The translations under genes and the position numbers were made by a program. A stretch of DNA of 64,000 nucleotides from Candidatus Binatia bacterium (lineage in GTDB: Bacteria; Desulfobacterota; Binatia; Bin18), in NCBI GenBank assembly GCA_963664395.2, contig OY761159.2:2976001-3040000 (forward strand), given 5' to 3'. The notes beneath the pieces were generated by a model that was not told the origin of the DNA, made no database searches, and worked only from the letters and a program-made list of their open reading frames with translations. Numbering within the stretch: the stretch's first letter is position 1; the number at the start of each line of letters is the position of its first letter. Shown here in pieces: positions 9,930 through 33,422 of this stretch.

Positions 9930-11481
9930 CTATTCGTACTGCGCTTTGAGTTCTTTCTTGAGGACTTTGCCCAAAGGATTCTTGGGAAGCTCGTCAATAA
10001 AATTAATCTCCCCTGGTTTTTTGAAGCTGGCCAGCCGTTCCTTACAGAAATCGCTAACTTCGTCCGCAGTGGCCGTCTGATCTGGCTTGAGGGCGACAAA
10101 GGCAACGATCTTTTGTCCCCAATCGACGTCAGGAACCCCGATAATTGCCGCCTCATCAACTGCCGGATGGGCGTGCAGGACCGCTTCGATTTCAGCTGGG
10201 GCGATGTTCTCACCGCCACGAATAATGATGTCGTCCTTGCGCCCGACCAGATAGACATAGCCGTCTTCGTCGATATAGCCCATGTCGCGGGTATGCAGCC
10301 AGCCGTTTTCGTCCAACAGGGCGGCGGTCGCACTTTCCTGATTGGCGTAGCCCTTCATCACGCGCGGAGTATGAATAACGACTTCACCGATCTCGTTGGC
10401 CGGCAGCTCTTTGTTCTCGTCATCAAGCACTTGGACTTCCACATCCGGCAGCGGTTTGCCGACCGAGGTCAAACGCTTGAGATTGCGCTCGACTTCTTCC
10501 GGCGTGCCGTTCAGCTTATGGTCATCCGGTCCAAGGACGGTCAGGGTCGAGTTGGTTTCGGTCTGGCCAAAGGCATTCACGAAACCGGTCGAATCCGGAA
10601 ACATATCAATAGCTTTGCGAATGACGGGGAAGGCCATGGGCGAGCCGCCATAGGAGACGTTCTGTAAACTCGACAAGTCATAGTTCGAGAACTCGGGATG
10701 ATCGATGAGTTGTTTGAGCATCGTGGGAACAACAAAAGCATGTGTGACCTGCTCGCTCTGGACTGCCTCCAGCCACTCTTCGGTATCGAACTGACGCAGG
10801 ATGGCGATCTTCCGGCCGTTCCAGAGCGCGGTCATAATGTTCATCGTGCCGGCAATGTGGTAGAGCGGAGCGCACAGGAGTGAAGTGCCGCGCGGAGTGC
10901 CGTCCGCCATTTCAACCGTGCCGATGACATAATTGGTAAATCCGCCATAGGTCAGCATCACGCCCTTGGGCAAAGATCGTCCCGCTGGTATACATCAGGA
11001 TGGACAGGTCGTCCTCATCCACTTCGACCTCTTCGATGTCGGGCGAACCCTGCTCAATCAAGTCGTCGTAGTGCAGCATATCGTCACGCCGCGTTTCGAG
11101 CGCGACATATGTCTCAACACAGCCAAGATTGGGCTTGAGGCTATTGACCAAGTCAATATAGCGAGCGCCCACAAGCAGAATCTTGGTCTCTGCCGCGGTA
11201 ATCATATATTCCAATTCAGGGGGCTTGGCCCGATAGTTCAGCGGCACAAATGTCGCGCCCAGAGTCGCCGTGGCATAATAGGCTTCGATGTATTGGGTGC
11301 AGTTTGTCTGCAAGATCGCCACGCGGTCACCCGGTTGAATACCTTGGTCACGCAAACCGCTTGCCAGCCGTTTGACCCGGTCCACGAGCGCTCCATAGGT
11401 CAACCGAGTGCCTTCAAAGGCCAGGATTTCCTGGTCCGGAAACATCATACCTGGAATGCCGATGAACTGTGACGTATTCAT
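9930..11481 (-). pseudogene. Acyl-CoA ligase (AMP-binding), split by a frameshift in the YTSGT-x-x-PKG motif (pseudogene or sequence error)
   Basis: ORFs 10912..11481 and 9930..10973 join as YTSGT[T]SLPKG if 2 nt are restored near 10977; FGQTE, GWLHTRDMG, GRKDDIIIRGGENI, PKNPLGKVLK. Confidence 0.9.
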
Positions 11482-17312: not shown

Positions 17313-17527
17313 TCAACTCCCGACCGATAACGCCGTCTGCGCTCAACCGTTTGAATAGACTATCGGCTAGGGACTGCTCATTGTGTGGTATGGGCACAGG
17401 AAGGAAGGTATTATGAAGGTAGGCTACTGTTCATAATCTACTTTGCTGAAACACCGAATCCGAGTATCGGGGTTCGGTGTCTCTAAGTTGGACTACTCGA
17501 CACAGATCGACTCACAGGAGGCATAAC

Positions 17528-18334
17528 ATGGTCGATCAGCAACCCGACGCGATAGATCAATCTCAATCGCTACGCAACACGGGCATCGTGTATGTGCTGA
17601 CAAACCCGGAGATGCCGAATTGCATTAAAATTGGCACCACACAAAAGTGGCCGCAACGTATGAAGGAATTAGATGGTACGTCTGTTCCGGTACCGTTTGA
17701 GTGCATGTATGCGGCGCGGGTGCATGACCCAAAAGCATGGGAAAAGACCCTGCATTATGTATTCGAGGACGCAAGAATCAACCCGAAGCGAGAATTTTTT
17801 AGCAAGGACGTTGCTGAAAAGGCGATCCGGATTTTGAAAACGGCGCAGGTCGAGAACGTCTCCTATACCTCAACCGACGTACGTGAGCGCCGTAAGCGCC
17901 TCGAGGAACTCGCAAACAAGCAGAACCGGTTCAACTTCGAAGTACTGGGCATACCCATCGGGGCAGAATTACAATTCATCCACAACAACGTAACCACATG
18001 TACAGTCACCAATCAAAAGCCACCCAAAGTGAATTTCCGTGGCGAGGAACTTCCGTTGTCCCGTGCAACTCACAAGGCATTTGCCTTAGAAGGTCTGTTG
18101 CATCGGAGCCACGAGGATAAAACCGAAGCCAATCCATTCGATGCCATCAACAAGGGCGATCCATTTGATGCTATTTCCCAGGTAGTGAACTGCGCAGAAG
18201 CGCTGTTGTGTTTGAGCTACTACGAGGGGAATGAAACTATGGCTATTGATGAAGCCAACAGCATGCACGATCTCTCTCAAGGGCTGGGATGGTGGAGGTA
18301 TAATGATCTAACCCTGGCAGAACTCTATAGTTAG
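17528..18334 (+). CDS. GIY-YIG (T5orf172-type) nuclease-domain protein
   Basis: GIVYVLTNPEMPNCIKIGTT...RMKEL..TSVPVPF...EKTLH...RINPKREFF; RBS AGGAGG. Confidence 0.88.
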   Translation: MVDQQPDAIDQSQSLRNTGIVYVLTNPEMPNCIKIGTTQKWPQRMKELDGTSVPVPFECMYAARVHDPKAWEKTLHYVFEDARINPKREFFSKDVAEKAIRILKTAQVENVSYTSTDVRERRKRLEELANKQNRFNFEVLGIPIGAELQFIHNNVTTCTVTNQKPPKVNFRGEELPLSRATHKAFALEGLLHRSHEDKTEANPFDAINKGDPFDAISQVVNCAEALLCLSYYEGNETMAIDEANSMHDLSQGLGWWRYNDLTLAELYS

Positions 18335-26944: not shown

Positions 26945-27283
26945 ATGGCGACTCTCGCGTTCGACACTCATGCCTTTGTGAAAGAATTGACCCAAGCCGG
27001 GATGCCGGAAGCGCAGGCCGAGGTGCTGGCGCGCTCGCAGGCGACCTTGATTGATGAGAAACTGGCCACCAAGCAGGACCTCAAGGAACTCGAAGCTCAC
27101 CTCACCCGGGATCTGAAAGAACTGGAAGCCCGTCTGACCCGGGACCTGAAGGAACTGGAAGACCGGCGGACACGAGACATGAGAGAGTTGGAGTTGCGTC
27201 TGAAGCACGACTTGACGTTGCGTCTCGGTTCAATGATGGTGGTGGCCATCGGGGTGGTCGCCGCGTTGGTGAAACTGCTGTGA
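26945..27283 (+). CDS. DUF1640/CCDC90-like coiled-coil membrane protein, long variant
   Basis: FDTHAFVKEL..AGMPEAQAE, LATKQDL, 11-aa repeats, C-terminal TM helix. Confidence 0.88.
   Translation: MATLAFDTHAFVKELTQAGMPEAQAEVLARSQATLIDEKLATKQDLKELEAHLTRDLKELEARLTRDLKELEDRRTRDMRELELRLKHDLTLRLGSMMVVAIGVVAALVKLL
27071..27201 (+). repeat. 33-bp intragenic tandem repeat (about 4 degenerate units)
   Basis: KQDLKELEAHL/TRDLKELEARL/TRDLKELEDRR/TRDMRELELRL. Confidence 0.8.
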
Positions 27284-27580: not shown

Positions 27581-28588
27581 CTACGACGCCAAACACTCCT
27601 GAATCGCCGCGTCAATAAAATCATTGTCCTTCGGATTCATTCCAATTCCCGTCAGATGGCCCCAAATCGATGGGACCGGTCTGAGCGTCGCGTGTGGCAT
27701 ACAGGCCACTTCTGCTTCGCTGTCTTCGGGTGGAAAATAGAGATCGGTCTGACTTGGCATAATCATGGCCTTGGCGGAGACTGTGGCCAGCGCCTTCTGC
27801 CAATCTCCATCAAATCCCGGCGAGTCACCGACATTATGATCCTGCCACGTCTTTGCCTGAGCCAGCAGATTATTCGCGTCGCATTGGAGAAAAAAGTTCT
27901 CCCAAAAATAAACCAGGAAATCTTCGACGCTCGGATGGCCGAGCTGCTTGTACAGCTCTTCACGATACCAGGCCTGCGACAGGCCCCAGCCGGCATACAC
28001 CCGGGCCATGGCACGAACGCCCGTGGCCGGCGCTTGGGCATAATGACCGTGGTTCCAGGCTGCGTCCGCACGGAGCGCGGAAGTAAAGCCTTCGATAAAG
28101 ACATGGGTATGCGGAGTGGTCCGCGCCGCACCGCACCACGGCGCGATCCGTTCGACCATGGCCGGATAGCTGACCGCCCACTGAAAGCACTGCTGCGCGC
28201 CCATCGAGTAGCCGGAGACCAGGGCGAGCGACTCAATGCCAAGGCTCTGAACCAGGGCGTGCTGCGCCCGCACATTGTCGCGGATCGTCGTTGCCGGAAA
28301 ATGCGGGCCATTCATAGGAACGCGCGTTGTGCTGGGAGAAGAAGACAGCCCGTTGGTGAACATATTGACGCCAATCACACAATATTTGGCCGGGTCGAAA
28401 CACTTGCCGTTCTGGATCAAAAACTCATAGCCGGTGTGATCGCCGGAATACCACGAGCACAGCAGGATGGCATTGTCTTTGCGGCTGTTAAGTTCGCCAT
28501 AGACTTGGTAGGCGAGTTGCGCCTTGCGTAACACCAGGCCGCATTCGAGCGGAAAATCCCCTAACGAAAAAAGCTTATGCTCCGGCAT
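27581..28588 (-). CDS. Alpha/beta hydrolase, homoserine O-acetyltransferase-like
   Basis: YGELNSRKDNAIL, NGLSSSPS, GYSMGA nucleophile elbow, DLYFPP, WGH. Confidence 0.88.
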   Translation of the reverse strand: MPEHKLFSLGDFPLECGLVLRKAQLAYQVYGELNSRKDNAILLCSWYSGDHTGYEFLIQNGKCFDPAKYCVIGVNMFTNGLSSSPSTTRVPMNGPHFPATTIRDNVRAQHALVQSLGIESLALVSGYSMGAQQCFQWAVSYPAMVERIAPWCGAARTTPHTHVFIEGFTSALRADAAWNHGHYAQAPATGVRAMARVYAGWGLSQAWYREELYKQLGHPSVEDFLVYFWENFFLQCDANNLLAQAKTWQDHNVGDSPGFDGDWQKALATVSAKAMIMPSQTDLYFPPEDSEAEVACMPHATLRPVPSIWGHLTGIGMNPKDNDFIDAAIQECLAS

Positions 28589-28696
28589 ATGGGTCCTCCT
28601 TTTAGCTGCAGTCGATCAATCCATGCTTCAATCACCTGGAGTCGGAAGTCAAGGCTGAGCTCAAAGTGGAGTTTCATGATCCCAATTACTTTCGAC

Positions 28697-30115
28697 CTAC
28701 ATGAAGAATCGAAATTGGTACGGCGCAGCTCCTAGGTTCGGTATGCGCTTGACAACTCTCGCCAATACCTTCGCGTAAGCCAGGGTGACCGGTAGAGGGT
28801 CATAGAGCGAGTCGTTATTCCAGTTCATCTTGGAAAGCCCGAGGATGGCGCGGGCCGTGTCATCCCAGGTGCCGTGGCCAGCATGGCGGACGAGGCGAAT
28901 GGGGCGAGGCGTACCGCGGCTGCCTTGAAAGAAGGAACGTTCCGTCACACCCTTCACGTCACCATGGGTCCATAGCAACGCCTCCCGGGGTCCGAGCCCA
29001 ACAACGGTTCCACGCGGAACCGGGAAATTGGCCGGTCTCCCCTTCCTGTCGTTCGGGTTCTGGTCTATACGGAGGCCTCGCCAGCCGACATCTTCGACAA
29101 CTTGGATAAGGTCAACGGCTTCGCACAGGTGTAGGGCTTCCATACAACCGTCAACTTCATCGGGTTTGAATTCCGTGGTCTTGTGAACCATAACACGACG
29201 TGGCGACCGACCGGCATGACGACGACGATACAGATCCATTGATCGTGTCATCACACGGAACATCTCGATTCTGGAAAGGAAGGGGTTATTGCGCTGGATT
29301 TCGATTTCTTGAGTATCGTAAGCCACGAACTCGAGGCCTGCCCCATCTGCATCGAACACTTGGCTACAACACGTTACGAAGCGTGGTCTGTCCGAGTCGG
29401 CGGGACGTACGGCGTAGGAGATGCCGATATAGGCCGTTTCTGGATCAGCCTCGGCTAGCTTCCACGGGACTCCGCCTGCTTTGGCATACAGCGCTAATCC
29501 GATGCGCCACATGACGCTGGCTTTGCAGTGATAGGCGATAGCGCTGTCTTCTCGCACTAATTGGATGGGCACTCCCCGAGCAGCTGTATATGCCTTCAAA
29601 TGATCATGCAGGTCGAAGTCGTCGTTGGGTCCGCCAACAAAACCAGACTCCCACCGTCTGGGAATGTAGACAAATAGAACGTCAAAGTCGCTTCGACGCG
29701 CTTCAAGACGCTGAATGGCTCTCACCAAGTATTCCGCAATCGTAACGTGCGGCTGAGGAGATTTTTGTAAGTTCGTATCAAGCTGATGGTCGACCTCCTC
29801 GTGGCAACCTTTACCGGCGGCGCTCATATGCAAACCGAAGACACGTTGGAAACTTGGCCATCGAGGGAGGTAATCCCTGCGCTCTCTTGGATTGAAAGCC
29901 GAGTTCAGGTTTCTCATGAAGTCATAGATGCGCTGACTCTCGCCGTGTGGTGCAAGGGTGGCTACACGGATGGGGTCGGGAACGAATCCTGCTGAATATG
30001 GCCCGTATTCCAGTAACCCACGCAGCGGATGTCGCTCTCGGTCCGAGGAGCGGTTGGGATGAAAAGCCAACATGGGCTCTGGGAGCCATATATGAGAGGC
30101 GATCTGGGAGGTCAC
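28697..30115 (-). CDS. Short prokaryotic Argonaute (MID-PIWI, catalytically inactive)
   Basis: EP.LAF..HPLRGLLEYGPYS, DLHDHLKA, IQLVRE, ALYAKAGGVPW, AYIGISY, VMVHKT, GTPRPI, ILGLSKMNWN, LPVTLAYA, YQFRFFM C-terminus; GTG overlaps the upstream stop. Confidence 0.95.
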   Translation of the reverse strand: MTSQIASHIWLPEPMLAFHPNRSSDRERHPLRGLLEYGPYSAGFVPDPIRVATLAPHGESQRIYDFMRNLNSAFNPRERRDYLPRWPSFQRVFGLHMSAAGKGCHEEVDHQLDTNLQKSPQPHVTIAEYLVRAIQRLEARRSDFDVLFVYIPRRWESGFVGGPNDDFDLHDHLKAYTAARGVPIQLVREDSAIAYHCKASVMWRIGLALYAKAGGVPWKLAEADPETAYIGISYAVRPADSDRPRFVTCCSQVFDADGAGLEFVAYDTQEIEIQRNNPFLSRIEMFRVMTRSMDLYRRRHAGRSPRRVMVHKTTEFKPDEVDGCMEALHLCEAVDLIQVVEDVGWRGLRIDQNPNDRKGRPANFPVPRGTVVGLGPREALLWTHGDVKGVTERSFFQGSRGTPRPIRLVRHAGHGTWDDTARAILGLSKMNWNNDSLYDPLPVTLAYAKVLARVVKRIPNLGAAPYQFRFFM

Positions 30116-31848
30116 GACACTATCCTAGTGGAGAAACAGGTAACCGGTGAGATTTGAAAAACAGCGTCGACACCATATCCTATGTTTAACGCACATATCT
30201 CCTTTTCATCTTGAGATAAGTGATGTGCCCAGAAGTCGATCAGATCGTTGAGCACATGATTATATCGTCCGATAGTCCGCTCACGAGCAAAATCGGTCGC
30301 TGCTCCCTTGTTGGCGTCGGTAATGCCTTCAAATACCGTACAAGGTTCGATGAGTAGCCAAAGGCGGTCATTGGCCCAGTCCAATCGAGCGGTGATGCCT
30401 TCCCACCACCGGAGATCGGGGTTCCCGTTGACGACTCCTGTCAGTATCCCAACCAAGTCCCGCAAGCGGCTCCAGATTGCATTTTTCGGGTCTGTGGGCA
30501 CGAAGCGTCGGTGACCTATGATGTTCAGACCACCGTGCCGACTAATCGCGCGATTGAGGGCTTCGCCTAAGAGTCCGCGTTCCGTAGATTCATATCTTTG
30601 ACGCTTAACGTCGAATGCGTAAAGGTCGAATTCAGTGATGCCATAGGAGTCGAAGACGTTGCGTATGTCAGCGTCTGCCCCGAAGGCCAATACGCCGACT
30701 TGAGAACGGACAGCAAGCACGTCCGCGCTGGATTTCTGTACGGCTTCGCGTACTTCGGCCGTGCCACCGATATCGCAAACTAGCCGGCGGCACTGAGTCG
30801 GCGCATTGATGACAGGCAAGGCGTTAAACCGTACGACAGGCCAGCCACGGCGAGCAGTCCGCTGAAGAGGCACTGGGCTCCAAGGCCGACGCTGCGACGC
30901 GAACCGGTTGAGCGCGGTCGTGTCGATGTCTTTAATAAGGCGAACTAGGTCACGCAGGGTCTCGTCGAAGTTCTCGACAGGCACTAACACTGATTCGATG
31001 TTGTTAGCGATGCCACGATCCAACAGTCGCATGACGCGTGGTAGTGGCCAGTCTTCACTCCGGTGTAACCAGAAAAACCCAGCAGGGAAGGCTCCCTTAT
31101 GTTCCATCGCCTCATCGAGCGCGTCCATGATGGAATCATCACGTCCGCTGTATCCGCATACGACAAGACCAAAACGCTTGCATGATTCGACCAGCGCTCT
31201 CCTCAAATGGGCATCTTGCTGACGCAGTTCATCGTCTGTGTTTTTCAGGCGACGAGAGCGGAAGTCGCCGTGAAGCTTGATTTCTATGGGCCAGCGTTCG
31301 TCGGCTAGTGACTGCTGGGCTTGATCCGCCGAATTAAGATCTATAGTGGTCAGCGCGCTTGTTGTGTCGTATACCTTGGCACAGGCATCCGCGACGAGAG
31401 CGTCGAAGTTCGTGGTCCACACCATACGCGTTTGTTTGTGGCGCATCAGCGTTGCGAGCGCTATGTGGCCGTATGATGGCTTAGCGCCTGTCAGTTTCCC
31501 ATCTAGGAATGCACGCCGGTCTGACTCTGCCGGATACGCCGCTTCAAACAGCGCGGCGTATTCATCCGGTGCGCCGGGTGACGGCATACTTCCTAGGGAC
31601 TCGATATGAGCGTCAATGCGGTTGCGCACAGCTGGTTGGGACAGGTCCACGGATGCTTGGCTCCAACTGCGATTCTGGCTGGCGAATAGGATTTGCTTGA
31701 ATTCCCAAATCATATCTATAGCAGTCGGGAGGCCAGCGGAGGCTGATGCGCCGGCACCGAGAAACCACATGAGATTCCTAGCCCGTAACGAAAAGCGTCG
31801 AGCGAAGTCGTCGGCTGGGATTTGGGGCCTGCTTGTTTCTTGACTCAT
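30112..31848 (-). CDS. SIR2-APAZ protein (NADase effector of SPARSA)
   Basis: WFLGAGASASAG, WTTNFD, IKLHGDF, CGYSGRD; C-terminal region (VVRFNALP...WLLIEP...R..GRYN..LIDFW) consistent with APAZ; coupled to short pAgo. Confidence 0.93.
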   Translation of the reverse strand: MSQETSRPQIPADDFARRFSLRARNLMWFLGAGASASAGLPTAIDMIWEFKQILFASQNRSWSQASVDLSQPAVRNRIDAHIESLGSMPSPGAPDEYAALFEAAYPAESDRRAFLDGKLTGAKPSYGHIALATLMRHKQTRMVWTTNFDALVADACAKVYDTTSALTTIDLNSADQAQQSLADERWPIEIKLHGDFRSRRLKNTDDELRQQDAHLRRALVESCKRFGLVVCGYSGRDDSIMDALDEAMEHKGAFPAGFFWLHRSEDWPLPRVMRLLDRGIANNIESVLVPVENFDETLRDLVRLIKDIDTTALNRFASQRRPWSPVPLQRTARRGWPVVRFNALPVINAPTQCRRLVCDIGGTAEVREAVQKSSADVLAVRSQVGVLAFGADADIRNVFDSYGITEFDLYAFDVKRQRYESTERGLLGEALNRAISRHGGLNIIGHRRFVPTDPKNAIWSRLRDLVGILTGVVNGNPDLRWWEGITARLDWANDRLWLLIEPCTVFEGITDANKGAATDFARERTIGRYNHVLNDLIDFWAHHLSQDEKEICALNIGYGVDAVFQISPVTCFSTRIVS

Positions 31849-31961
31849 ATCAAGCGGTAAAAAATTGGACTCTTAGGAAAGCTATTCACTCGGCCCTTGG
31901 TCAGCCTCAGATGAGCAGGTCGTCGTCAATGCTTAGAGTGATTGATATCGTGGATTTTCCC

Positions 31962-32333
31962 TTACGCCATCATCAGGCCGGAATCCTCGAATCGGCGAAA
32001 GTCCGCCACATTCGCAGTCGCTATGGGTGCGCCATCGACGAGCGCCGTTGCTGCAATCATGCAATCGATCAATGAGCCGCGCCGCCTGCCCGACTCATTA
32101 AATAAACGGGCGGCAATCGTAGCGTGCTTCGGCATGAAGTCTCGGCGCTGTCCGACGATTTCAGTGGCCAATTCCATCTCGGAGCGGTCAAGTGGGCCGC
32201 ACAGGAACTCTGCCCAGGCGACTGTACTCATTACCAGTGTTTCGCCCTCTTCAATCCAGATTCGCAGTTTGCGATCTTCAGGTGATCCCGGTTTCAGGGC
32301 TTGGATCAGAAAGCTCGTGTCCAAGTGGATCAT
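31962..32333 (-). CDS. vapC: PIN-domain toxin
   Basis: IHLDTSFLI, WAEFLCG, DCMIAATA, ATANVADF. Confidence 0.93.
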   Translation of the reverse strand: MIHLDTSFLIQALKPGSPEDRKLRIWIEEGETLVMSTVAWAEFLCGPLDRSEMELATEIVGQRRDFMPKHATIAARLFNESGRRRGSLIDCMIAATALVDGAPIATANVADFRRFEDSGLMMA

Positions 32334-32614
32334 TGAGACTTGGAAGATAACCGCGGAGCAGCCGCTTGGCGCTCAGTATTGAGAGTCCGCGCCCATTGTG
32401 TGACATTGACCTTGCGCTTACATAGAGAAGCCTGCAATTGGTCAAGAGCGCTGAGCGCCACACCGCTCTCCGGCTCCCACTCCATCGCTGCTCTTCGAAT
32501 AGCACGCCGCAACACTTCGGACTTCGACACCTTCCAGCGTTGTGCCAACGCCTCCAGTGTGTTTACGGATTCGACATCCAGCGAATATGTCGATTTGATG
32601 GTTTGTGTAGCCAT
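32330..32614 (-). CDS. vapB: CopG/RHH antitoxin
   Basis: KSTYSLD...LAQRWKVSKSEVLRRAI; ATGA overlap with the PIN gene. Confidence 0.88.
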   Translation of the reverse strand: MATQTIKSTYSLDVESVNTLEALAQRWKVSKSEVLRRAIRRAAMEWEPESGVALSALDQLQASLCKRKVNVTQWARTLNTERQAAAPRLSSKSQ

Positions 32615-32684: not shown

Positions 32685-33422
32685 TTACGCTGTATACCCG
32701 AGCGCGTTCAGGTAGGCTTGCACACTTGATACCAGCCCCATATCGAGCGCGTCGCAAATCAGCGCGTGGCCAATGGACACTTCGAGCAGACCGGGTAAAT
32801 GCTCCACAAGGTAAGGCAGATTATCCAAGTTGAGATCGTGCCCGGCATTCAGACCCAGGCCGGCTTCTTGCGCCGCTTGGGCGGCGGTGTGATACGCGGC
32901 ATAGGCGTGGTCCTGCTCGGCACTGCCAAAGAGACGGGCGTAGCGTTCCGTATAGAGTTCGATCCGGTCTGCGCCGACCTCTTTTGCTCGTCTCACCTGG
33001 TCTCTATCCGGATCGAGAAAAAGACTGGTCCGTATGCCGTTGGCGTGTAAACGCCGCAACACCTCGCCGAGCCAAGTCGTATCACCCCGCAAATCCCAGC
33101 CGGCGTTTGAGGTGAGCACGTCCGGCGGATCGGGCACCAGGGTGCACTGGGTCGGTTGCACCTGGCAGACCAGGTCCAGAAACTCGGTCGAAGGATAGCC
33201 CTCAATGTTGAATTCAGTGCTGCTGTGGTCCGCGAGCAGGGCGGCTATGTCTCGCACGTCCTGATAACGAATATGGCGACCGTCCGGGCGTGGATGCAGG
33301 GTGATGCCGTGGCAGCCGGCGTCAATACACGTTTGGGCGGCGTGAACGACATTCGGCTGGTCGCCGCCCCGAGCATTGCGCAGGGTGGCGATTTTATTGA
33401 CGTTGACACTGAGTTTGATCAT
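32685..33422 (-). CDS. pdxJ: Pyridoxine 5'-phosphate synthase
   Basis: LSVNVNKIATLRNARG, ITLHPRPDGRHI, NIEG, ELYT, NAGHDL, EVSIGHA. Confidence 0.97.
   Translation of the reverse strand: MIKLSVNVNKIATLRNARGGDQPNVVHAAQTCIDAGCHGITLHPRPDGRHIRYQDVRDIAALLADHSSTEFNIEGYPSTEFLDLVCQVQPTQCTLVPDPPDVLTSNAGWDLRGDTTWLGEVLRRLHANGIRTSLFLDPDRDQVRRAKEVGADRIELYTERYARLFGSAEQDHAYAAYHTAAQAAQEAGLGLNAGHDLNLDNLPYLVEHLPGLLEVSIGHALICDALDMGLVSSVQAYLNALGYTA

Follow-up and report, generated by a model that had tools for sequence, protein, structure and literature searches.

A putative two-gene SPARSA-B operon of SIR2-APAZ and short Argonaute in a variable hotspot of an uncultured Binatia bacterium

Does a pair of overlapping genes in an uncultured bacterium form a working Argonaute-based defence operon, and how far can its mode of action be read from the only system of its kind that has been solved structurally? 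The question is raised by a locus of Candidatus Binatia bacterium (assembly GCA_963664395.2), which lies in a stretch of 64,000 nucleotides (nt) of contig OY761159.2 (positions 2,976,001 to 3,040,000 of the forward strand). This stretch is called the window below, and its own numbering is used throughout. An initial annotation, made from the sequence, had read the locus as an intact SPARSA-type system, in which a SIR2-APAZ effector is paired with a short prokaryotic Argonaute (pAgo). The analysis described here points with high confidence to a functional two-gene defence operon of the SPARSA-B form (short pAgo clade S1B), a judgement built on sequence comparison and on analogy with characterised relatives. 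The operon consists of the following features.

30112..31848, minus strand: SIR2-APAZ effector gene, 578 amino acids (aa), ATG start, with the SIR2 NADase domain N-terminal and the APAZ domain C-terminal
28697..30115, minus strand: short prokaryotic Argonaute (Ago) gene, 472 aa, GTG start, MID-PIWI only
30112..30115, minus strand: GTGA, 4 nt in which the stop codon of SIR2-APAZ overlaps the start codon of Ago, translational coupling

The window is free of any N, and the listing of open reading frames (ORFs) gives both genes uninterrupted, with the position, strand and size first assigned to them. The short motifs named at that stage are present as well: GAGAS at residue 31, TTNFD at 145, KLHG at 191 and GYSGRD at 232 of the SIR2 protein, and YIGISY at 229 and VHKT at 310 of Ago. 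The two genes share four bases, as had been proposed; the junction on the minus strand reads GTC GTGA CC, and an AGGA stands about 9–12 nt 5' of the GTG start codon of Ago. The GC content over the gene pair (0.53–0.56) is slightly below that of the flanks (0.56–0.60), and Ago is single-copy in its own genome (5.04 Mb, 14 contigs).

At the level of sequence, the family assignment is settled by defence-specific profiles, which are decisive. The PADLOC model Aga_SIR2-PNTD1-PNTD2 (PDLC02419) matches residues 19–575 of the SIR2-APAZ protein over profile positions 1–556 of 558 (E = 1.5e-180), and pAgo_I (PDLC02377) matches residues 2–472 of Ago over positions 2–457 of 457 (E = 2e-196). In this search, which the initial annotation had proposed, the SIR2-APAZ and class I pAgo models are covered over nearly their full length. 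Pfam SIR2_2 is found at residues 142–266 of the SIR2-APAZ protein (1.6e-15), and NCBIfam offers no model for either protein, its deacylase matches being weak and below threshold (21 bits against cut-offs of 243–320). In a sequence search of the PDB, the SIR2-APAZ protein retrieves 8jkz_A, 8jl0_A and 8in8_B ('Sir2 superfamily protein') at 4e-69 over residues 13–546, and Ago retrieves 8in8_C ('Piwi domain protein') at 2.8e-116, with residues 3–472 paired with residues 6–473 of a chain of 473. Because Ago is aligned end to end with a solved short pAgo, N and PAZ domains have no place in it; the absence of PAZ noted earlier is borne out by this pairing and by the coverage of the pAgo_I profile.

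The fold of the SIR2-APAZ protein was predicted with AlphaFold2 from an alignment (A1) with 41 relatives, namely those of the 77 loci with a SIR2-APAZ match in which the match is near full-length, plus the distant locus L005. The model (mean pLDDT 80.6, pTM 0.52) shows two confident domains with a low-confidence linker between them at about residues 321–339, and its APAZ half, about residues 340–573, has pLDDT values mostly above 80. When the model is searched against the PDB with Foldseek, SPARSA chains take ranks 1–8, with 8jkz_A first (3.0e-41), then 8jl0_A and 8y80_E, and the APAZ-only chains 8k87_B, 8in8_B and 8y7z_A superpose on it with TMt 0.77 (rmsd 3.3–5.0). The APAZ fold is thus recovered by structure prediction. 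The whole-chain TM is only 0.45–0.46, as is expected of a two-domain protein modelled without its partner. The PADLOC profiles, the solved Geobacter complex and the predicted fold together support the reading of the pair as a SIR2-APAZ/short Argonaute system of the SPARSA type. In the terms of the accessible part of Koopal et al. 2022, where an operon of SIR2-APAZ and short pAgo is placed in clade S1B and called SPARSA-B, the locus is the split-operon form. Of the traits that define the family, the short MID-PIWI Ago, the SIR2-APAZ gene directly upstream, the APAZ fold, the SIR2 active site with its NAD+ pocket and the MID 5'-phosphate pocket are found in it.

The system with which the pair can be compared most closely by residue is GsSir2/Ago (GsSPARSA) of Geobacter sulfurreducens, solved by cryogenic electron microscopy (PDB 8in8, 8jkz, 8jl0, 8k87, 8k88, 8y7z, 8y80, 8y82). 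In both, a SIR2-APAZ gene is followed by an overlapping gene for a short MID-PIWI Ago, and the products are of near-equal size (578 and 472 aa here, against solved chains of 584–587 and 473). Both have the catalytic N/H/D, the NAD-binding S/R, the cofactor loop, the 5'-phosphate pocket and the C-terminal Met, as well as an Asn and an aromatic residue in the sensor loop and residues of the same kind at both PIWI motifs. The two are nevertheless distant, with 28% identity between the SIR2-APAZ proteins in the structural alignment. The gene overlap is 4 nt here versus 11 bp in Geobacter, as given in the accessible text of the preprint of Zaremba et al. (10.1101/2021.12.14.472599), the Ago sensor loop is shorter here by one residue, and the base-reading residues, those at the guide 2'-OH and most of the Sir2-Sir2 and Ago-Ago oligomer contacts are replaced.

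Other systems are likened to the pair at greater remove. CcSir2/Ago of Caballeronia cordobensis and XavSIR2-APAZ of Xanthomonas vesicatoria, both tested in E. coli, belong to the same split S1B operon type, a likeness drawn by description only. According to the available portions of the sources, CcSir2/Ago is a 1:1 heterodimer that binds NAD+ and gives protection from lambda and pCDF (Zaremba et al., 10.1101/2021.12.14.472599), XavSIR2-APAZ reduces NAD in E. coli (Koopal et al. 2022), and the Geobacter, Caballeronia and Paraburkholderia systems shield E. coli from phages and plasmids via NAD+ depletion (Zaremba et al., 10.1101/2021.12.14.472599; a review). The SPARSA-A fusions of clade S1A, such as PgSir2-Ago and JomSIR2-APAZ-Ago, hold the same three modules in one chain, whereas two genes are found here; the PADLOC profiles of the fused form, PDLC02420 (3.3e-80 / 4.3e-112) and PDLC02384 (1.2e-78 / 1.6e-102), match both proteins. 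SPARTA systems (TIR-APAZ with short pAgo, clade S2A) resemble the pair in their APAZ and MID-PIWI modules and combine a guide- and target-triggered NADase with abortive infection. The APAZ half of the model retrieves SPARTA chains at E of about 1e-8 to 1e-9, and Ago retrieves SPARTA Agos at E 1e-19 to 1e-23, but the effector domain there is TIR and not SIR2. Matches to the SIR2 half come from ThsA of Thoeris, DSR2 and Sir2-HerA (E 1e-7 to 1e-9); unlike the pair, these enzymes have no APAZ domain, no Argonaute partner and other triggers.

Whether the proteins could still work was judged from individual residues. The Geobacter residues compared were those probed in Cui et al. 2024 (PMC11452484), with further ones from Zhen et al. 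2024 (PMC10781750) and the preprint of Zaremba et al. (10.1101/2021.12.14.472599), each source in its accessible part. They were mapped through the printed pairwise alignments of the PDB search, in which positions in gapped regions (Gs H104, K396 and Y530) are uncertain. Conservation was counted over 75 Agos and 69 SIR2-APAZ proteins, namely those of the window and of each of the 80 related loci (L009–L088, described below) with a full-length ORF; 6 loci for Ago and 12 for SIR2-APAZ without such an ORF were left out of the counts.

In the SIR2 domain, the catalytic residues Gs N142 and H186 are kept as N147 and H193 (69/69 each), and so are the NAD+-binding residues (D230 as D237, 69/69; S227 as S234, 68/69; R229 as R236, 69/69) and the cofactor loop (A26 as A32 and A37 as A43, 68/69 each). 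The need for each of these in GsSir2 was shown by mutation, as stated in the available text of Cui et al. 2024 (PMC11452484) and Zaremba et al. (10.1101/2021.12.14.472599). The 5'-phosphate pocket of Ago is likewise kept (Gs H166 as H170, 74/75; K170 as K174, 75/75; Q181 as Q185, 75/75), together with the cation ligand (N434 as N433, 74/75), the C-terminal methionine as the last residue (M473 as M472, 75/75) and the contacts to the guide 5'-A (D164 as D168, F158 as F159). At the tip of the sensor loop, Gs N272 is retained as N277 (75/75), and Gs Y274 is replaced by F279. Residues S233 of YIGISY and K312 of VHKT equal S228 and K307 of GsAgo and are invariant in the subclade (75/75); these are two positions only, and their columns are what we take to be catalytic tetrad positions of PIWI. 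GsAgo itself is reported to be without DEDX in the accessible parts of Cui et al. 2024 (PMC11452484) and Zhen et al. 2024 (PMC10781750). Judged by these residues, the enzyme and the guide-anchoring machinery appear intact.

By homology with the Geobacter sulfurreducens system, the presumably catalytically inactive 472-aa MID-PIWI Ago would form a heterodimer with the 578-aa SIR2-APAZ protein, in which APAZ would replace the N/PAZ lobe. The MID pocket would bind a small 5'-phosphorylated guide, which is RNA in the studied system, and once the guide had paired with DNA of an invading plasmid or phage, the sensor loop of PIWI would move. This shift would activate the SIR2 NADase, probably via oligomerisation, and as NAD+ is depleted, the invaded cell would stop growing or die. 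Complex formation, guide type and loading, target-triggered NADase activation and the defence phenotype are features that we infer only, by analogy.

Several results weigh against this reading, or against carrying it over unchanged from Geobacter. The Pfam Piwi match on Ago is weak (E 1.8e-4, 21.4 bits, under the cut-off of 28.9). Among the eight guide contacts of the Geobacter type (5'-AU RNA) that were compared, D168 and F159 are the only ones kept. Replaced are R190 by Y195 and N195 by S200 (75/75 each), N184 by R188 (71/75), Y240 by F246 (75/75), H310 by E315 (74/75) and K396 by Q397 (65/75), so that all GsAgo residues that read the second guide base or are said to contact the guide 2'-OH are exchanged, and Y195, S200, F246 and E315 are near-invariant in the subclade. 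The oligomer contacts of Sir2 are altered in a similar manner: N7 to D13, E8 to D14, D153 to K158, H158 to A165, Y168 to D175, N175 to A182, Q192 to R199, N244 to K251, H249 to A256 and Q297 to L304 are all replacements that are fixed in the subclade. R296 (R303 here) is the sole kept residue among the Gs oligomer-interface residues compared. For two of the replaced Sir2 tetramer contacts, alanine mutants were inactive in Geobacter, according to the available text of Cui et al. 2024 (PMC11452484). In Ago, the oligomer contacts P175 and T253 are replaced by A179 and A259, and Gs H104 falls in an unalignable region. Given these replacements, guide preference and the oligomeric mode of activation cannot simply be copied from Geobacter. 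The residues argue against a Geobacter-like activation interface, which lowers the claim that the same interface is used; the claim of oligomerisation as such is not lowered.

Expression adds to these reservations. A scan found no promoter-like site in the 113-nt spacer between the SIR2-APAZ gene and the toxin gene vapC upstream of it, and no Shine-Dalgarno motif is seen in the sequence 5' of the SIR2-APAZ gene; expression may therefore depend on read-through from vapBC. The only minus-strand promoter-like site lies 5' of vapB, and its count is at chance level. In total, the promoter and terminator scan returned 4 and 5 sites against 3.5 and 5.8 expected from shuffles, which is evidence neither way. 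Metatranscriptomic contigs of one public run (X19) lie on Ago (28683–29033 and 29252–29515) and on the SIR2-APAZ gene (31327–31593, with 1 mismatch, and 31661–31813). They are compatible with transcription and are not proof of it, because contaminating DNA can occur in RNA libraries. Positions 29711–31318 and pdxJ in X19, and all of SPARSA in a further run (X20), are without RNA-library contigs, which carries no weight.

The replacements in Ago and Sir2 suggest a further possibility, which is put forward tentatively and is rather doubtful. The copy in the window and at least 74 relatives would constitute a large SPARSA-B subclade that may load guides with another 5' signature, or be less strict about RNA versus DNA, and may build its active oligomer via another interface.

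The size of this subclade and its distribution can be estimated from the relatives. A protein database yielded 2594 relatives at E <= 0.001 among 8000 candidates scored, and the 120 matches listed are 72–89% identical. In contigs from one genome per species, 127 stretches encode a relative; the best 80 of these 127 (L009–L088), drawn from many phyla, were analysed. A SIR2-APAZ homolog stands 5' of Ago in 77 of the 80 loci, and the three misses (L018, L026, L081) have less than 220 nt of upstream sequence. In 71 of the 77, the end of the SIR2-APAZ match lies no more than 30 nt away from the point where Ago starts; one of these loci (L043) holds a 42-residue piece only. In the other 6, the gap is 200–1952 nt, and several of these have partial Ago matches.

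In seven loci (L022, L024, L037, L043, L067, L069 and L070), the two matches are 200–1952 nt apart or partial, which suggests insertions or decayed copies.

A same-genus ortholog (in genome G004; genomes of the genus are given as G numbers) is 97% identical in Ago and 93% in SIR2-APAZ. Both genes are under purifying selection: measured against this ortholog, the ratio of nonsynonymous to synonymous substitution rates (dN/dS) is about 0.13 (0.138 for SIR2-APAZ and 0.134 for Ago), with 0.145 for vapB, 0.146 for vapC and 0.109 for the metX-like core gene downstream.

A FastTree phylogeny of the 75 Agos, rooted on two 40%-identical copies from the genus, groups the window with G004 (support 0.99) next to a Latescibacterota copy (0.95) and then to Acidobacteriota and Ca. 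Multivorans copies (0.86). Another genus copy, 70% identical (G019), falls among alphaproteobacterial sequences (support 1.0) and sits at a different chromosomal place, and two genomes (G012 and G018) hold a third, distant SIR2-APAZ/Ago pair (28–29% and 40% identity). A relative at E <= 1e-30 is present in 4 of 72,556 plasmid records, two being 70.5% identical. The tree that crosses phyla, the scattered copies in the genus and those on plasmids fit repeated horizontal acquisition, and the subclade, as judged by these comparisons, appears to be very large and horizontally spread. Weaker PIWI matches also occur in the genus, in frames of 493–662 aa (G011, G014, G023, G017 and G008).

The place in which the operon lies is itself variable. 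The initial annotation had set it between ordinary metabolic genes, a metX-like hydrolase gene and pdxJ, with no integrase. The flanks are confirmed by profiles, and the lack of an integrase holds for the neighbouring ORFs that were scanned; the operon is not directly beside pdxJ, from which the SIR2 gene is separated by a VapBC pair, and the context is not plainly metabolic but a variable hotspot of defence and toxin-antitoxin (TA) genes. Its features around the operon are listed here.

32685..33422, minus strand: pdxJ, conserved core gene, upstream edge of the hotspot (Pfam PdxJ 1.4e-86; NF003626 348.6 bits against a cut-off of 222)
32330..32614, minus strand: vapB, ribbon-helix-helix antitoxin, 94 aa (Pfam RHH_1 9.5e-6), overlapping vapC by 4 nt
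31962..32333, minus strand: vapC, PIN toxin, 123 aa (Pfam PIN 7.5e-14; NCBIfam VapC 34.5 bits, below the cut-off of 80)
31849..31961, minus strand: spacer of 113 nt between vapC and SIR2-APAZ, mostly native hotspot sequence common to SPARSA-free relatives
28625..28677, minus strand: 5' remnant of a Type III restriction gene (res), its first ~18 codons, beginning 20 nt past the Ago stop
27581..28588, minus strand: MetX-like alpha/beta hydrolase (PRK07581 family), core gene, downstream edge (NF005757 460.3 bits against 332)

True MetX models score under their cut-offs on the hydrolase. Of the 28 genomes of the genus, all have the hydrolase and 27 gave a match for pdxJ; the two are neighbours in 25 of 27 relatives, the remaining two being 65% and 81% complete. 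The gap between them measures 42 bp (G007, G041), 51 bp (G017), 70 bp (G013) or 195 bp (G003) in the shortest cases, about 840–1110 bp in six genomes and 1301–2746 bp in nine; it reaches 4100 bp in this window, 4144 bp in G004, 4502 bp in G018, 4598 bp in G012, 6099 bp in G022 and 6507 bp in G014.

The cargo of 25 such intervals (L089–L113) was scanned through 32 long co-directional ORFs, chosen from those of at least 60 aa, with mostly antisense or nested ORFs left out. The same vapBC pair occurs in the hotspot of seven relatives (G043, G021, G002, G005, G006, G012 and G004); vapB is followed by a vapC cut after 26–30 codons in G011, G016 and G018, and vapB is alone in G022. MNT/HepT pairs and other PIN toxins also belong to the cargo. 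In G022 (L112), the Type III genes are intact, with 668 aa for mod and 993 aa for res. In G014 (L113), res has broken into pieces of 306, 504 and 157 aa and is separated from mod by an MNT/HepT pair, and G021 has a 157-aa res tail. Further cargo comprises PD-(D/E)XK proteins with a weak PDC-S26 match (G005, G016), a HIRAN protein (G011), an OGG fragment (G008) and GST genes (G020, G024, G015). Sulfatase or alkaline-phosphatase-type proteins of 712–747 aa in G018 (L110:2101-4344, minus strand) and G012 (L111:2102-4240, minus strand) are matched by no PADLOC profile and may represent defence cargo that has escaped recognition. Three genomes (G001, L103; G006, L107; G012, L111) have an extra copy of the last 25 pdxJ codons (72–92% identity) 0.7–0.8 kb downstream of the intact gene, which looks like a footprint of insertions at the pdxJ 3' end.

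The borders of the SPARSA cassette can be traced in the DNA. Over its 53 nt, the res remnant is 87% identical to the beginning of the res gene in G022, which is intact, and in G014, where it is broken, and its translation opens with MKLHFE as their N-termini do; the same remnant precedes the MetX-like gene in G012, G018, G023, G001 and G019, and it marks the downstream border of the cassette. By blastn, homology to SPARSA-free relatives reaches to about 7 nt from the SIR2-APAZ start and resumes 20 nt past the Ago stop. Within the upstream spacer, homology to G006 and G021 extends about 50 nt beyond the vapC stop, and another 44 nt (82% identity) match G006 just 5' of its metX-like gene. The idea that non-coding flanks travel with the cassette was rejected: among the 80 loci, sequence like that of the two spacers (113 nt upstream, 111 nt downstream) occurs only in the same-genus ortholog (L009) and, over 57 nt at 77%, in L010. 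A scan of 33 ORFs around the operon, from 9 to 51 kb (chosen from 44 ORF calls, with those already annotated and obvious antisense ORFs left out), brought up neither an integrase nor a transposase family. Between 28400 and 32700, only short chance-like repeat pairs occur, none bracketing the genes; no tRNA that could be an integration target was found in 20–40 kb and no Rfam family in 26–35 kb. The pdxJ–metX-like interval is a variable, integrase-free defence/TA hotspot, in which vapBC is an independent tenant.

Independent data agree with this arrangement. Among 24 listed public runs, 20, from 10 studies, hold at least part of the stretch, and four runs were mapped on the hotspot. A DNA contig of X3 (29943–32253), with a single mismatch over its 2311 nt, runs from vapC through SIR2-APAZ into the 5' end of Ago in an independent data set. 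In X3 and X9, the summed contig depth is 75–136 over the core genes and 2–15 over SPARSA, values that are not copy numbers and were not used as evidence, and many contigs leave the reference at 28622 and inside vapBC. This contrast in depth fits what is expected if co-occurring relatives carry other cargo at the site.

A rival reading is that the cassette is intact but silent or passively carried, having entered the hotspot with no promoter to drive it, contributing little and heading for loss. The small amount of sequence outside the two ORFs that SPARSA-free relatives do not have (about 7 nt on the upstream side and 19 nt on the downstream side) speaks for such a fate, as do the lack of a promoter-like site in the spacer, the decayed cargo at the same site (the res remnant here, the res in three pieces in G014, the truncated vapC in G011, G016 and G018) and the 7 of 80 related loci that look disrupted. 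However, both ORFs are intact in two species at a dS of 0.10–0.23, and their dN/dS of about 0.13 indicates selection no weaker than on the neighbouring core gene. All tested catalytic and binding residues are kept, the co-directional vapBC can supply transcription, and RNA-library contigs lie on both genes. On this balance, a silent cassette is unlikely, and the functional operon is preferred.

It is more improbable still that VapBC and the SIR2-APAZ/Ago pair belong together as a single system of four genes, such as an Argonaute module under TA control. The four share a strand, vapBC lies 113 nt upstream, the sole minus-strand promoter-like site (at chance level, as noted) is 5' of vapB, and the arrangement is kept in the same-genus ortholog. 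Yet that ortholog is the only one of the 80 loci with VapB/VapC beside SPARSA, while the same vapBC (86–95% identity) occupies the hotspot without SPARSA in the six other genomes named above (G043, G021, G002, G005, G006 and G012) and beside unrelated cargo elsewhere; VapBC as a part of SPARSA was rejected on these two counts. A role outside defence, such as guide-directed regulation of host DNA or RNA or sirtuin deacylation, is scarcely credible: nothing specific favours it beyond the weak, sub-threshold NCBIfam deacylase matches, and it is opposed by the patchy presence in the genus, a hotspot full of restriction-modification and TA modules, a phylogeny that crosses phyla, the plasmid copies, closest structural relatives that are defence NADases (SPARSA, ThsA, DSR2, Sir2-HerA) and the blocked peptide channel of GsSir2, from which the accessible part of Cui et al. 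2024 (PMC11452484) concludes that GsSir2 is not a deacetylase.

Three other features of the window stand apart from the operon. At 17477–18334 (plus strand), a 285-aa protein with a T5orf172/MUG113 (GIY-YIG-like) domain lies alone among metabolic genes and may be another small mobile or defence insertion. At 9930–11481 (minus strand), two overlapping ORFs divide between them an AMP-binding enzyme of the acyl-CoA synthetase-like kind: 10912–11481 covers profile positions 8–173 and 9930–10973 covers positions 176–383 and the C-terminal domain; a frameshift or an assembly error is likely. At 26945–27283 (plus strand), a 112-aa coiled-coil protein has repeated 'DLKELE...RLTRDLKELE' units, and its CCDC90-like match, at 26.3 bits, falls short of the cut-off of 33.5.

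The SPARSA class has already been described, solved structurally and characterised biochemically, and the copy in the window, which very probably works as a SPARSA-B operon, is an ordinary further example of it. Its surroundings show clearly how a hotspot that lacks an integrase varies in nature in a lineage not yet cultured, with empty sites and varied cargo between the same core genes, which could be mined for unrecognised cargo such as the 712–747 aa sulfatase-like proteins. The subclade to which the copy belongs is the dominant one of SPARSA-B by number, and the residues by which guide choice and tetramer formation are explained in the one solved system are different in it. Conclusions drawn from Geobacter may not transfer unchanged to the most populous branch of SPARSA-B.

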